Source: Candidatus Nitricoxidivorans perseverans (GTDB lineage: Bacteria; Pseudomonadota; Gammaproteobacteria; Burkholderiales; Rhodocyclaceae). Taken from it: 64,000 nt of DNA. Made by a program: the position numbers and the translations under genes. The notes below the pieces were generated by a model. It did not search any database and was not told where the DNA came from. It worked only from the letters and a program-made list of their open reading frames with translations. Every line of letters begins with the position of its first letter. Positions within the stretch are counted from its first letter, which is position 1. The DNA lies in NCBI GenBank assembly GCA_030246985.1, contig CP107246.1:372282-436281 (forward strand), given 5' to 3'. Shown in pieces: positions 26,396 through 37,303 of this stretch.

Positions 26396-28417
26396 TTGCT
26401 GAAAACGATGGCAGCATCCTCCCATGCAAATACCATCGTCAATGGCCCGAATGGGTCATGGCCCGAACGGGCTATTGCCATATGCCGATCAGGTAGTAGG
26501 GTGTGTCCGGGTCGGACAATCGGGAGAACCGCCATAAACTACACTTTCAAGGGCCGCCTGTGCGGTTACATCTGTCCGGAATGTCCGGAGCCTCTGGCCG
26601 ACGTCGTGGTGCGGCTCTACCGCAGCAGCCAGCCGAACGTCACCGCCCTGGCGGTGGCCAGCCCCAAGGAGACGTTCGCCATCCTCTCCGACGCGGAGGT
26701 CGCGGCGAAGGCCGGACGCCTGATCGCCGAGGCCGTCACGGATTCCCAGGGCGGTTTCGTCTTCGAATTGGGCGATGCGCAGAAATACGGAGGCGAGGCG
26801 TTCGACATCGACGTCTATTGCGGCACCGTGCCGCCGCGCCCGCCGAGGCCGCGCCCGGTCCAGTTTTCGGTCACCACGCTGCAACCGCAATGGCGCCAGG
26901 CCGAGCGCGGCCGGGTCGCCGCCTGGGAGTACTGCGTTCCGCAACGAAACTGGTGCGCCGTGCGCGCGCGCTTCGACGCATGGACGATCTGCGGCCGCGT
27001 CACCGTGTGCGACACCCGGCAGGCCGTCATGGGCGTGCGCGTGCTCGCCTTCGACGTCGACTGGCTCCAGGACGACCCCCTCGGCAGCGCCATGACCGAC
27101 GCGTCGGGACATTTCCGCATCGACTACTCCAGCGCCGATTTCCAGCGCACGCCCTTCTCGCCGTCGATCAACCTGGAATGGACGGGCGGGCCGGACGTGT
27201 ATTTCCGCGTCGAGGCCGCCGACGGCACGCCGCTGCTGATCGAGCCGCCCTCGCGGGGGCGCACGCCGGGGCGCGAGAACGTCGGACACTGCCTCTGCGT
27301 CGATTTGTGCCTGAAAGAGCCGCCGCGGCAGAATCTGCCCACCATCCCGCTGTTCACCAATGTCGGCCAGTACCGCGTCGACCCGGTCTACGGCGATTTC
27401 ACCGCCGCGGGCCTGACGACGGCCGGCGATTACGCCTTTACCGACACCATTCCGCTGATCGGCATCCTGCCCGACGGCCAGGCGCCGGCCGACATGGAAT
27501 ACCGCTTCCGCGTCGCCGAGTACGACGCCACCGCGACGATACTCGGGGCCGTCATGGACGTGGATGCCTCCATGGTGAGCGCGACGATCATCGGCAAGCT
27601 CCAGTATTGGAGCTGGAACGGCGCGCTCACCGCGTGGGAGATCAAGGCCGCCGATTATTTCGTCAACAACCCCGGCGCCACGGTCAACATCCCGCAGCCG
27701 GTCGGGCCGGCCCTGACGGTGGGCGTCAACAAGGACGTGGGCCCGGGCGGCTGGATACGGGTGCCGCGCGAGAACGGCTTGTTCCCCGGCGGCGTCGGCC
27801 GTTTCATCCCGCAGGGGGGCCTGGTCAACCTCGTGACCACGAAGCTGACCGACGAATCCCGGGACCTCACGGTGCCCGCGCCGGGGACGGCGGCCGGCGA
27901 AAGCGTGCCGGCGGGCAAGAAATCGCGTGCCCACACCTTCAAGCTGTTCTTCGAGGCGCGCGACGTCGGCGCCCTCGCGCTGTCGCCGGGCAGCAACGCG
28001 CTCGACAAGATCGTGTTCAGCAACACGCATTACACCTACCGCCGCCACCCCGCGTGGGCGGGCAGCACGCCGACGACGCGGGGCGTGGTGTCGCTGGACA
28101 TCCTCGAACTGTCGGCGCCGGGCGCCGGCTGCGGAAAGCTGACCGACGCGCTGCACGCCCTGTTCACGGTCTATCACCCGTTCGTGGGCGGCGCGCGGGT
28201 CTATTTCGAAGGCAACCCGGTGTTACCCGCGGAATTGCCGCTGGCCATCGTCGGCGGCGAGGCCGTGTCGTCGCCGGCCGGGCACCTGTTCGACATCTCG
28301 GCCCTGCAACCCTGCGCCTACATCCTGTGGCTGGAGGCGACGCTGAATCTCACCGCCGGGTGGGGGCGCATCCCCTACGCCACGACATGGGATCACATCG
28401 CCTTCTGCAAGGGGTGA
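26396..28417 (+). CDS. Uncharacterised large Cys-rich protein with carboxypeptidase-regulatory/transthyretin-like beta modules
   Basis: ORF of 673 aa. The start is uncertain (ATG 26408 or GTG 26501 are alternatives). CGYICPECPEP near the N-terminus. Modules such as VVRLYRSS...DSQGGFVFEL and GRVTVCDTRQAVMGVRVLAFDVD...DASGHFRIDY resemble CarboxypepD_reg-like folds. No signal peptide seen. Confidence 0.6.
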   Translation: MLKTMAASSHANTIVNGPNGSWPERAIAICRSGSRVCPGRTIGRTAINYTFKGRLCGYICPECPEPLADVVVRLYRSSQPNVTALAVASPKETFAILSDAEVAAKAGRLIAEAVTDSQGGFVFELGDAQKYGGEAFDIDVYCGTVPPRPPRPRPVQFSVTTLQPQWRQAERGRVAAWEYCVPQRNWCAVRARFDAWTICGRVTVCDTRQAVMGVRVLAFDVDWLQDDPLGSAMTDASGHFRIDYSSADFQRTPFSPSINLEWTGGPDVYFRVEAADGTPLLIEPPSRGRTPGRENVGHCLCVDLCLKEPPRQNLPTIPLFTNVGQYRVDPVYGDFTAAGLTTAGDYAFTDTIPLIGILPDGQAPADMEYRFRVAEYDATATILGAVMDVDASMVSATIIGKLQYWSWNGALTAWEIKAADYFVNNPGATVNIPQPVGPALTVGVNKDVGPGGWIRVPRENGLFPGGVGRFIPQGGLVNLVTTKLTDESRDLTVPAPGTAAGESVPAGKKSRAHTFKLFFEARDVGALALSPGSNALDKIVFSNTHYTYRRHPAWAGSTPTTRGVVSLDILELSAPGAGCGKLTDALHALFTVYHPFVGGARVYFEGNPVLPAELPLAIVGGEAVSSPAGHLFDISALQPCAYILWLEATLNLTAGWGRIPYATTWDHIAFCKG

Positions 28418-28424
28418 ACCGGCG

Positions 28425-29648
28425 ATGCCGAGGAAATACACGCTCTGCCTCACGCATCGATGCAACCTCCGTTGCTCCTATTGCTATATCGACAAGCGCG
28501 CCGGGCGGATGTCGATCGAGGTCGCGGACAGGATCGTCGAATCCATCTTCGGCTCTCCGCCGCCCGGTGACGACGATGGCGTCGACATCGGGTTCTTCGG
28601 CGGCGAGCCGCTGCTGGAGTTCGACCTGCTCAAGGAGATCGTCGGCCGGATCGAGCGCCACCCGAATTTCGACCGCAAGACGGTGACGCTGTCGGTCGTC
28701 AGCAACGGCACTCTCCTTTCCGAGGCGATGGCGGACTATCTGGCCGAACACGGCGTCGTTCTCTGCCTGAGCTGCGACGGGCCGCCGCATGTGCAGGACA
28801 GGTTCCGCAAGCAGCGCAACGGCCGGGCCAGTTCGGCCCGGGTCGTCCGGGCGATCGAGATCGCGCGCAGGCGCCTGCCGCTGTTCATGGTCAACGCGGT
28901 CTATCGCCCCGAGACGCTCGACGAGCTGCCGGCGACGGTGGATTTCCTCTCCGGGCTCGGCGCGCGGCAGATATACCTCAATCCCGACGCGGGGGCGCCG
29001 TGGCGCCGCGAAGACGCGGCGAAGCTGGCCGGCCTCTATGCCGGCATCGGAGACTGGTACGTCCGGGCATACCTGCGCAACGACCTCCATTTCGTCAGCC
29101 TGATCGACAGCAAGATCGCCGTCATCCTGCGCGGCGGATACGGAGCCTCGGAGCGTTGCCAGATGGGCAGCCGGGAGATCGCCTTCACGGCCGAGGGCCG
29201 GGTCTATCCCTGCGAACGTCTGATCGGCGACGGCAAGGGCGGCCGGCACTGCCTGGGCAGCATCCAGGACGGCCGCTTGCCGCGGGCGGCCGTCTCCTTT
29301 TGCACCGATGCGGCCGCCCGCGCGGAATCGCCATGCGCGGCCTGCGGCATCCGGGAGTACTGCATGAACTGGTGCGGCTGCTCCAACTACCTCGCGACCG
29401 GAAGCTACGACCGCGTGAGCCCGTTCCTGTGCGCCTCGGAACGCGCCGCCGTGGCCGCCGCCGCGCGGGTATACGAGCGTCTCGATGCCGCCTGTCCGGG
29501 CGTGTTTTCGGACCACCTGGCGGGCAAGCCTTCCGCGATGAGCCGGATGAATGGCCGCGACGCGGCCTCGGGCGATCGCACGTCGAGTCCCAATGCCTGC
29601 GGCGGCGGCCAATCCGCGGCCACTGCGGGTTTCTTCCGCGAACCATGA
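28425..29648 (+). CDS. Radical SAM enzyme with full C-terminal SPASM domain (peptide/protein-modifying maturase type)
   Basis: 407 aa. CNLRCSYC (CxxxCxxC) at residues 12-19. SPASM signature C-x12-G-x4-C (CQMGSREIAFTAEGRVYPC), then CAACGIREYCMNWC (C-x2-C-x5-C-x3-C) and a later Cys. It starts 7 nt after the upstream stop. Confidence 0.85.
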   Translation: MPRKYTLCLTHRCNLRCSYCYIDKRAGRMSIEVADRIVESIFGSPPPGDDDGVDIGFFGGEPLLEFDLLKEIVGRIERHPNFDRKTVTLSVVSNGTLLSEAMADYLAEHGVVLCLSCDGPPHVQDRFRKQRNGRASSARVVRAIEIARRRLPLFMVNAVYRPETLDELPATVDFLSGLGARQIYLNPDAGAPWRREDAAKLAGLYAGIGDWYVRAYLRNDLHFVSLIDSKIAVILRGGYGASERCQMGSREIAFTAEGRVYPCERLIGDGKGGRHCLGSIQDGRLPRAAVSFCTDAAARAESPCAACGIREYCMNWCGCSNYLATGSYDRVSPFLCASERAAVAAAARVYERLDAACPGVFSDHLAGKPSAMSRMNGRDAASGDRTSSPNACGGGQSAATAGFFREP

Positions 29649-29661
29649 AAAGGAGAAAGCC

Positions 29662-36435: not shown

Positions 36436-36446
36436 AGGAGAACGGC

Positions 36447-36794
36447 ATGAGCGCTTCATCCCGAGGTTTCGCCATCGCCGCCGCGCTGGCCTGCGCGGCC
36501 CCCTTGCAATCGGTGGGGGCGGAACTGCAGCCTTACTCGCTCCCGTCCCAGCAGATCGCACCCCGGATGGAGCAGCGCCAGATGGAGCAACACCCGATGG
36601 AGCAGCGGGCCGTGCGTCCCCGGATCAGCGAAGTCTATTACCAGAACTTCGGGAAGAAAGTTGAAGGCCTGAATCCGGCGCAGCGCGCCGAGCTCATCAA
36701 ATCGTTCGGGGTCAGGCGCGATCAAGCGATCGAAGGGGGCCGGGTGGATGAGGCGCAGCATTATTTGCGGTTGCTACAGATACTGGGGAAATAA
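36447..36794 (+). CDS. Small secreted protein (115 aa)
   Basis: AAAGGAGAA RBS. Signal peptide MSASSRGFAIAAALACAAPLQSVGA. Short MEQ-rich repeat (RMEQRQMEQHPMEQR). Confidence 0.55.
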   Translation: MSASSRGFAIAAALACAAPLQSVGAELQPYSLPSQQIAPRMEQRQMEQHPMEQRAVRPRISEVYYQNFGKKVEGLNPAQRAELIKSFGVRRDQAIEGGRVDEAQHYLRLLQILGK

Positions 36795-36805
36795 AGGTAA
36801 AAATC

Positions 36806-37303
36806 ATGAAACATGCATGGGCTTTGATCTGGCTGGGACTGCTCCTGCTATTGGCGGCGAGCGCGGCCAGCCGCGCAGCGGACAACGACGTCAAGCGGCT
36901 CGAAACCCTGGGCGCCTATGAAGCGGCGCTCGACACCGCCGTGGCGCAGCCGCCGGCTCCCGCCATCGACACGCAGGCGCAGGCGGACAAGCTCACCCAC
37001 GAGTTCAAGATGCGCCGGGAAGAAGTCAAGCTGTACGAAATCGCCATCCTGAGCGCGCTGGCCCTGGTCTCCCTGTTCATCGTGCTGCGCTTCATCACCG
37101 CCGAAGCCGCCTACTCGGCATCCCACATCGTGAACGCGACCGGGCTGGTTTTCATCATTTTCGGCACCATCCTGCTCGTGCTCTTGGCGGACACCGATGA
37201 GCAGCTGACTGCCCCGATCGGCATTCTGGGCGCGGTGGCCGGCTATCTGTTCGGCTCCATCAACCGGGGGAAATCCGGCACCGAAACGGGCGGGGAAAAA
37301 TAG
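36806..37303 (+). CDS. Membrane protein (165 aa; signal peptide plus C-terminal TM helices)
   Basis: MKHAWALIWLGLLLLLAASAASRA signal. Hydrophobic segments ILSALALVSLFIVLRFI, GLVFIIFGTILLVLLA and GILGAVAGYLFG. Confidence 0.6.
   Translation: MKHAWALIWLGLLLLLAASAASRAADNDVKRLETLGAYEAALDTAVAQPPAPAIDTQAQADKLTHEFKMRREEVKLYEIAILSALALVSLFIVLRFITAEAAYSASHIVNATGLVFIIFGTILLVLLADTDEQLTAPIGILGAVAGYLFGSINRGKSGTETGGEK

Follow-up and report, generated by a model that had tools for sequence, protein, structure and literature searches.

We describe an array of eight genes (g1 to g8) in a 64,000-nt stretch of the chromosome of Candidatus Nitricoxidivorans perseverans (CP107246.1, positions 372,282 to 436,281), hereafter the window, in whose numbering the array is described. 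The host belongs to the betaproteobacterial family Sterolibacteriaceae, and its closed genome measures 2.7 Mb (PMC10390337). The eight open reading frames (ORFs) are tightly packed and co-directional on the plus strand, with gaps of exactly 7, 13, 127, 25, 19, 11 and 11 nt, and lie between the nif region and an exopolysaccharide (EPS) locus, with a divergent PEP-CTERM gene alongside; their coordinates and setting confirm what a sequence-only reading of the same DNA, made by a model that ran no database searches, had reported. The predicted products are a Cys-rich chain of beta-sandwich domains (g1), a radical SAM/SPASM enzyme (g2) and its small Cys-free neighbour (g3), a membrane protein headed by a protein-glutaminase domain (g4), a peptidoglycan (PG)-binding protein (g5), a peptidase-hydrolase fusion (g6), and a small secreted (g7) and a small membrane protein (g8) (Table 1). 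Judging from related loci in other genomes, the array is probably a lineage-specific patchwork of four separately inherited units, g1, g2-g3, g4 and g5-g8, and not one conserved machine.

Gene content and packing of the array

Table 1. Coordinates, in the window, of the array genes and of neighbouring features.
Feature	Position	Strand	Description
g1	26501-28417	+	638 aa; likely start GTG 26501 (earlier start 26396)
g2	28425-29648	+	Radical SAM/SPASM enzyme without N-terminal extension carrying a RiPP recognition element (RRE)
g3	29662-30066	+	134 aa, Cys-free, adjoins g2
127-nt gap	30067-30193	+	Divides g2-g3 from g4; sole gap long enough for signals
g4 head	30194-31228	+	Residues 1-345: pro-segment and catalytic domain, zymogen-like protein-glutaminase (predicted)
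g4 core	31229-33085	+	Residues ~346-964, ~600-aa beta-rich module
g4 tail	33086-33448	+	Four hydrophobic helices; conserved Cys in loop WRKxCRPxxCQ and at C-terminus
g5-g8 cassette	33464-37305	+	3842-bp block in common with Sulfuricella metagenome-assembled genomes (MAGs)
g5	33474-34427	+	PG_binding_1 and ~215-aa C-terminal domain, no signal peptide
g6	34447-36435	+	Papain-like C1 peptidase fused to alpha/beta hydrolase, no signal peptide
g7	36447-36794	+	115 aa, Sec-type signal peptide; 72% identical copy in L154
g8	36806-37303	+	165 aa, signal peptide and three hydrophobic helices; 76% identical copy in L154
Nif-specific ferredoxin III gene	24099-24386		
TIGR03790-family gene	24442-25689	+	415 aa, 254.6 bits, no Pfam match; between ferredoxin III and PEP-CTERM genes
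Inverted repeat	25695-25730		Strong, GC-rich; between PEP-CTERM gene and convergent upstream gene
PEP-CTERM gene	25760-26323	-	187 aa; start most likely 26323 (good ribosome-binding site), not 26425
DDE_Tnp_1 transposase gene	40303-41988	+	Inside EPS/PEP-CTERM locus, between LuxR-type regulator and BBP2 porin genes

The public proteins WIM06094-WIM06100 match the gene models of g2, g3 and g5-g8, including the 134 residues given earlier for g3, and the g4 product shows 100% identity to a protein from the host genome. The G+C content at third codon positions (GC3) is 0.84-0.89 in seven of the eight array genes (all but g7), which is the level of the neighbouring genes; for this reason the composition gives no sign of recent arrival, and the host-like G+C of the sequence-only reading is upheld for those seven genes.

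Consensus scans found no convincing terminator or promoter inside the array, and all that the 127-nt gap offers is a short GC palindrome lacking a T run. The operon proposed earlier is plausible from the spacing: the tight co-directional arrangement stands, and co-transcription is what we infer from it. Rfam and tRNA scans of the window returned no RNA elements, and the supplements of the genome paper give no expression values for OHM77_02025-02060 (PMC10390337). An integron gene-cassette array was also considered and rejected, as gaps of 7-25 nt are too short for attC sites, the unit borders carry no repeats and the scanned flanks contain no integrase.

Distribution of the genes at related loci

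The co-occurrence of the array families was assessed within 10 kb on either side of about 160 related loci (84 of the g4 family, five of the g1 family, 63 of the g2 family and about 14 of the g6 family). The g4 sample came from a scan of 185,579 species genomes, which gave 323 stretches encoding relatives, the 80 best loci and four others being examined. Not one of these 84 loci contains g1, g2, g3, g5, g7 or g8 within that distance; tblastn of the other seven array proteins (flanks up to 10 kb) retrieved a single g6 homologue, and all-against-all clustering of the flanking ORFs revealed no recurrent neighbour. The g4 neighbourhoods themselves differ among Azotobacter, Nostoc, Zixibacteria, a 73%-identical relative and plasmids. 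Homologues of g1 (56-80% identical; Desulfomarina and several metagenome assemblies) have no conserved neighbours at their five loci, which represent three assemblies or contexts, and g6 stands alone at 65-68% identity (Brocadia, a 68%-identical relative) and on plasmids. At the radical SAM loci, relatives of g1 or of g4-g8 are absent apart from one 25%-identical peptidase-domain match to g6 (L119), and the clustered loci show no third conserved gene near g2-g3. The only conserved neighbour sets are the g2-g3 pair (20 of 22 clustered loci) and the four genes g5-g8, which recur as a set in two Sulfuricella MAGs and nowhere else among the loci. Three of the four families are patchily distributed yet 50-77% identical across phyla, the fourth being the radical SAM-partner pair.

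The borders of the last unit are visible in the DNA itself. The g5-g8 block is 89.6 and 88.7% identical to the two Sulfuricella copies (L154 and L162, respectively), the encoded proteins being 72-91% identical. The similarity runs from the ribosome-binding site of g5 (33464) to 2 nt past the g8 stop codon (37305), where it ends abruptly, and the flanks are unrelated. In the Sulfuricella MAGs (L154, 5750-14057; L162, 1-5566) the cassette has an ABC ATPase/FtsX-MacB permease pair on one side and, on the other, ends just 9 nt before a membrane-fusion-protein gene; it has either been inserted into a tripartite efflux operon or is functionally tied to that operon. In the window, the right border is spanned by two imperfect 25-nt copies of a direct repeat in tandem (GGGGAAATAGGGGA-type, 37288-37338).

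Since the component families do not co-occur at related loci, a single eight-gene system, as implied by the sequence-only reading, is not supported; absence of co-occurrence elsewhere is what that reading itself had said would speak against it. Some observations nonetheless weigh against the patchwork. The packing (7-25 nt gaps, bar the one of 127 nt), the strong ribosome-binding sites and the missing internal terminators look like one or two transcription units, and co-expression could give the array a joint role in this organism. The co-occurrence survey refers to 10 kb around each locus and not to whole genomes. In a Saccharimonadales MAG (L082), a g6 homologue (58% identical, 4188-6083) is encoded 2.5 kb upstream of a kelch-headed g4-core gene (8573-12199), the only g4/g6 co-occurrence seen among the loci examined, and g6-like genes adjoin PG-binding proteins on two rhizobial plasmids, so that some functional linkage between parts is possible.

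The same packing and the same rhizobial arrangement, together with three predicted hydrolases devoid of signal peptides and a PG-binding domain, could be taken to indicate one co-functional, lineage-specific module of eight genes for envelope remodelling or antagonism, whose leaderless hydrolases would be released or delivered together. We regard this as improbable: the units are not found together in the approximately 160 related loci, no secretion, immunity or delivery genes occur in or beside the array, the positive-inside rule would place the bulk of g4 in the cytoplasm, and g5-g8 is joined to g4 as a discrete cassette. That g4, g5 and g6 lack Sec signals had been correctly recognised by the sequence-only reading; its envelope or antagonism hypothesis is unsupported for the whole array and plausible for the g5-g8 cassette only, g4 being predicted to face the cytoplasm. 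Under the patchwork reading, the four units would probably be read from few promoters in this genome.

Predicted products of the four units and their surroundings

The assignment of g2 as a radical SAM enzyme with a full SPASM domain proved sound. The protein matches the Pfam Radical_SAM model (9.4e-19, 68.6 bits against a cut-off of 29.5) and contains both the CX3CX2C cluster (CNLRCSYC, residues 12-19) and the 7-Cys SPASM motif (CX9-15GX4C ... CX2CX5CX3C ... C), here C-x12-G-x4-C, CAACGIREYCMNWC and one more Cys. In NCBIfam, SPASM enzymes align with it as far as residues 328-354; the Pfam SPASM model does not report it at E <= 0.1, and there is no NCBIfam equivalog for it, the best match being PapB (NF047865) with 179.8 bits against a cut-off of 340. 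The g3 protein has no match in Pfam, NCBIfam, PADLOC, PHROGs or PDB. It is conserved over its whole length among homologues, with invariant G18, H82, H84 and W97 and the consensus GGxRxPHLH.

The pairing of both genes is the constant feature of this unit. Among the 63 g2-family loci obtained from a metagenome scan, 22 were clustered for neighbours; where flanking sequence was available, a g3 homologue lies directly beside the radical SAM gene (20 of these 22), either upstream or downstream. No RRE, protease or transporter gene is conserved near the pair, and hairpins are found 3' of it in several loci of other genomes. A hidden precursor peptide was also sought and discarded: the 127-nt gap contains a 26-codon ORF, but no small ORF is conserved across 11 loci. 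Dedicated enzyme-partner pairing is a signature of SPASM maturases, and g3 is therefore read as the own partner of g2 and is probably its substrate. Most likely, g2 would modify g3 post-translationally, at the invariant His-x-His of the loop GGxRxPHLH or close to it. The product would be a cyclophane-type C-C or C-N crosslink or some other change to a side chain; a thioether cannot be formed on g3, which has no cysteine. A crosslink or side-chain modification centred on His-x-His appears to be the most economical proposal.

The sequence-only reading had suggested instead a maturation pathway in which g1, g4 or both would receive thioether or other crosslinks from g2 in their Cys-rich segments. 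In its favour, g2 finds its best family matches among thioether-forming enzymes (PapB, QhpD, the SCIFF maturase), cysteines are conserved in g1 and in the tail of g4, and 7 nt separate the start of g2 from g1. However, g1 and g4 relatives are without a radical SAM neighbour at all loci examined, and g2 relatives are never near g1 or g4 and almost always near g3, a constant partner that is free of cysteine. These findings contradict such crosslinking of the large neighbours, to which we concede only a very slight probability.

The gene g1 was described earlier as encoding a Cys-rich protein with transthyretin-like modules. A Cys-rich, all-beta, multi-domain protein is retained, the match to the TTR family being weak, as are those to CarboxypepD_reg and bMG3, and the start is moved (Table 1), because the homologues (48-85% identical, ~630 aa) begin at MxYIFKGRLCGY. 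The public g1 model (603 aa, P0121) starts after the N-terminal Cys-rich segment FKGRLCGYICPEC (26501-26605), which is conserved in the homologues; the annotated start is probably too far downstream. The AlphaFold2 (AF2) model built with 45 homologues (predicted local distance difference test, pLDDT, 91.5) is all-beta, and its Foldseek matches in PDB are multi-domain beta-sandwich surface proteins, namely Gram-positive pilins, an adhesin extender repeat and MG domains. Many cysteines are invariant, and the protein shows neither a signal peptide nor a sortase motif nor an isopeptide signature. A leaderless Cys-rich beta-sandwich chain is thus predicted, for which the fold suggests a binding or scaffold role. 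A homology of g1 with g4 was considered and dismissed, BLASTP finding none.

The third unit, g4 (30194-33448, 1084 aa), fits its earlier description as a protein with an intact Cys-His-Asp deamidase domain and a Cys-containing tail of several transmembrane helices. Its head matches Gln_deamidase_2 (PF18626; 2.6e-19, 69.8 bits against a cut-off of 25), and C212, H266 and D285, invariant in 22 homologues, align with Cys42, His83 and Asp103 of 2ksv. Foldseek aligned the head model with pro-protein-glutaminase (3a56) over 277 columns, pro-region included (E 2.4e-11, template-modelling (TM) score 0.65). The score against the NCBIfam protein-glutaminase equivalog NF040782 is 40.4 bits for a cut-off of 250, and the translation begins without a signal peptide. 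Four hydrophobic helices are indicated by a hydropathy scan, in agreement with the AF2 model, which places them at residues 962-1072; because the loop between helices 2 and 3 is strongly basic (WRKKCRPTDCQLLR), the positive-inside rule predicts an N-in/C-in topology with the large N-terminal part facing the cytoplasm.

Between head and tail, the core has no match in Pfam or PDB, and a deeper core alignment profile (A2) also found nothing in PDB. The full-length AF2 model is poor in this region (pLDDT below 50 at residues 593-655 and 679-758), for which Foldseek finds nothing beyond generic Ig-like matches in PDB and BFVD. The core family comprises 1509 cluster representatives (50% identity) at E <= 1e-3, 527 of them at E <= 1e-30. 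Elsewhere the core is linked to other heads, including Aspzincin_M35, Pro-kumamolisin/S53 (sedolisin), Kelch and BNR, none of the heads examined having a signal peptide; a g4-type head without the core is encoded on a Sinorhizobium plasmid (H58). Tails vary within the family from two to five membrane helices, or a soluble domain of about 75 aa. Identity to g4 ranges from 55 to 100% among its best 120 homologues, with a query coverage of 89% or more in nearly all (79% and 89% in two). The record labels of these homologues include Nostoc, Azotobacter, Bacteroidales, Zixibacteria, Chlorobium, Methanosarcinales and Promethearchaeota; as the flanking genes of the "archaeal" homologues are not diagnostic of truly archaeal contigs, the cross-domain spread of the family is one of MAG labels only. 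Broadly, g4 would be a membrane-tethered pro-protein-glutaminase that is predicted to face the cytoplasm and would deamidate Gln to Glu on proteins once the pro-segment is displaced or cleaved, and the core may serve as a carrier or recognition scaffold for interchangeable enzyme heads. Within this family, a Chitinophagaceae MAG (L014) contains two tandem paralogues (9905-13192 and 14267-17602), and in a Euryarchaeota-labelled MAG (L023) the homologue is split (10001-11284 and 11572-13233), by a frameshift or as a pseudogene.

Two of the four cassette proteins have recognisable domains. The PG_binding_1 domain reported earlier for g5 is confirmed (9.6e-19, 67.8 bits). Its C-terminal domain belongs with phrog_30036 (2.8e-28), a family of unknown function, and shares 33-36% identity with proteins of Thermus phages. 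Apart from this family, it gives a single further match, to the GH46 chitosanase 7c6c at E = 0.51, so that the lysozyme fold proposed earlier stays a conjecture. In g6, the papain-like peptidase was recovered both by Peptidase_C1 (28.1 bits against a cut-off of 20.7) and by alignment of residues 17-249 with xylellain (3ois, 5.9e-12). The serine hydrolase signature is also present, and the C-terminal part is, from its motifs, an alpha/beta hydrolase; with 19.4 bits it stays just below the DUF900 (PF05990) cut-off of 20.5, so that membership of that family, as assumed earlier, is not reached by score. Invariant in 28 homologues from several phyla are Q54, C60, H205 and N221 of the peptidase, and HGG334-336, S462 (GHSAG), D539/D540 and H618. 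The best 120 g6 homologues (Sulfuricella, Jettenia/Brocadia, Bacteroidota, Cyanobacteria) are 62-93% identical over 96-100% of the query. Scans of Pfam, NCBIfam, PADLOC and PHROGs assign neither the g7 nor the g8 product to a family, and the signal peptides and hydrophobic helices in their translations agree with the small secreted and small membrane protein seen previously.

The g5-g8 unit is read as a mobile four-gene cassette, encoding a hydrolase set that is likely directed at the cell envelope. It would pair a leaderless PG-binding and probably muralytic g5 and a leaderless dual cysteine-peptidase/serine-hydrolase g6 with an exported g7 and a membrane-bound g8. A role directed at the cell wall is hinted at by the PG-binding proteins adjoining distant g6-like genes (32-34% identical) on the two rhizobial plasmids. 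With regard to a possible phage-like lysis cassette (holin, endolysin, spanin), g5 is leaderless and has a PG-binding domain, g8 has a cleavable-looking signal peptide and matches no holin family, and no phage genes lie near the array. Phage origin was rejected for g1, g4 and g6, whose families are absent from 2.9 million viral contigs bar one peptidase-only fragment. A distant g6-like C1 peptidase is also found on the Rhizobium leguminosarum plasmid pRle248d (L165, 1-6845), beside genes for a trypsin-like protease, a YEATS-associated helix and a caspase-family protein, surroundings that recall conflict systems.

The four units could also be thought of as an island of independent mobile conflict or defence modules (e.g., an infection-triggered zymogen hydrolase or a lysis-type cassette), clustered as defence genes do. 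Such an interpretation would suit the patchy distribution with high conservation, the transfer of the g5-g8 cassette between families, the leaderless zymogen-like hydrolases, the occasional neighbours (SduA_C, toxin-antitoxin genes and transposases) and the caspase, trypsin-like and YEATS-associated genes beside one g6-like gene. On the other hand, PADLOC-DB 2.0 returned nothing for the eight proteins beyond generic radical SAM hits of g2 to pVip, plus one BrxB at E = 0.008. No defence enrichment is seen among the genes right next to g4-family members (127 in all), which encode TonB receptors, transporters and metabolic enzymes, the families are essentially absent from the viral contigs, and Kelch and BNR heads are atypical of defence effectors. 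We therefore consider a defence island unlikely, and the patchwork of separately inherited units is preferred.

Upstream of the array lie two nitrogenase-type nifE/N-like genes, nifX, the gene of the nif-specific ferredoxin III (fdxN), the TIGR03790-family gene and the divergent PEP-CTERM gene; the inverted repeat behind the latter looks like a bidirectional terminator. Downstream, on the side of the PEP-CTERM/EPS locus, are genes for VanZ, a Bac_transf priming glycosyltransferase, a LuxR regulator, an insertion sequence (IS) transposase and a BBP2 porin. An activator gene near a g1 homologue prompted a search for a sigma-54 promoter upstream of g1, which was rejected, no match occurring in the gaps 26324-26500 or 30067-30193. 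Sigma-54-type matches in the window are confined to the nif region or to the interior of coding sequence; the three listed (TGGCAC-N5-TTGCW; 6815-6830, 12157-12172 and 20819-20834, with 0, 1 and 1 mismatches) all belong to the nif region, and two immediately precede predicted plus-strand gene starts. At the right end of the window (56000-64000), the G+C content drops from ~0.65-0.70 to 0.54-0.61, which may mark foreign DNA.

Significance and comparison with known systems

Tight gene packing should not be read as a "system" by itself, and the present array, most probably a patchwork, is an example. The g4 core (without Pfam or PDB match), the g1 family (beta-sandwich chains of ~630 aa), the 660-aa dual peptidase/hydrolase g6 and the g2-g3 pair represent, as judged from sequence, uncharacterised families: their catalytic domains are recognisable, and their architecture, partners and predicted location differ from those of known systems. 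The cross-phylum conservation of g1 and g6 is about that of core informational proteins, yet their distribution is patchy. Each family is tractable for structure and enzymology, and the g4 core, which numbers at least 1509 cluster representatives and carries exchangeable enzyme heads, and the g2-g3 pair are the most worthy of follow-up; given the Cys-free partner g3, g2 should catalyse a chemistry other than that of its thioether-forming nearest relatives. A more far-reaching view, which we put forward tentatively and hold to be rather doubtful, is that the g4 core, spread over many bacterial phyla and MAGs with archaeal labels, is an unrecognised carrier or activation platform presenting interchangeable leaderless pro-enzyme heads (protein-glutaminase, sedolisin, aspzincin, galactose-oxidase-like kelch, BNR) at or across the membrane, that g2-g3 stands for a new class of radical SAM-modified proteins with a His-centred crosslink or modification, and that the window has brought several ultra-conserved, horizontally mobile stand-alone hydrolase genes under common transcription.

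The sequence-only reading could not map the combination of genes onto any characterised system, and this remains the case: no known defence, ribosomally synthesized and post-translationally modified peptide (RiPP), secretion or toxin system matches the array, PADLOC recognising a generic radical SAM protein and NCBIfam no equivalog. Likenesses are thus found at the level of single units. As in PapB, QhpD, ScfB (SCIFF), XyeB, GrrM and HxsB, g2 combines CX3CX2C with a complete 7-Cys SPASM domain, can be aligned with these maturases from end to end and has one small adjacent gene; unlike them, it scores below all equivalog cut-offs. In contrast to their short Cys-rich precursors, g3 is Cys-free, ~130 aa long and conserved over its full length, and the pair also differs from those systems in that no RRE, protease or transporter gene is conserved nearby. 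The g1 protein resembles the pilins BcpA and SpaA, adhesin extender repeats and the MG domains of alpha-2-macroglobulin as a string of beta-sandwich domains, with global TM scores of 0.12-0.26 that restrict the likeness to the domain level, and departs from these surface proteins in its many invariant cysteines and in lacking their signal peptide, sortase motif or isopeptide signature.

The head of g4 aligns with the protein-glutaminase of Chryseobacterium proteolyticum (3a56, pro-form; 2ksv, mature form) in the triad and in the motifs YPxDGC..RAH, WxxHVA and IDPS. The Chryseobacterium enzyme is secreted, whereas g4 has no signal peptide, is predicted to be cytoplasmic and continues after its catalytic head with a ~600-aa core and four membrane helices, to a total of 1084 aa. 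With phage-type endolysins, g5 shares the N-terminal PG_binding_1 domain, the absence of a leader and a C-terminal domain from a phage family (phrog_30036); unlike in those endolysins, this domain matches no characterised muramidase, amidase or transglycosylase family, and the gene is found in a chromosomal, non-phage context. Unlike typical holins, g8 has a cleavable-looking signal peptide and no holin-family match. Finally, g6 has kept the catalytic Gln, Cys, His and Asn of xylellain and other bacterial C1 peptidases, from which it differs by the C-terminal fusion to an alpha/beta hydrolase and by having no signal peptide or obvious pro-peptide, in an architecture of ~660 aa that is 62-68% identical across phyla.

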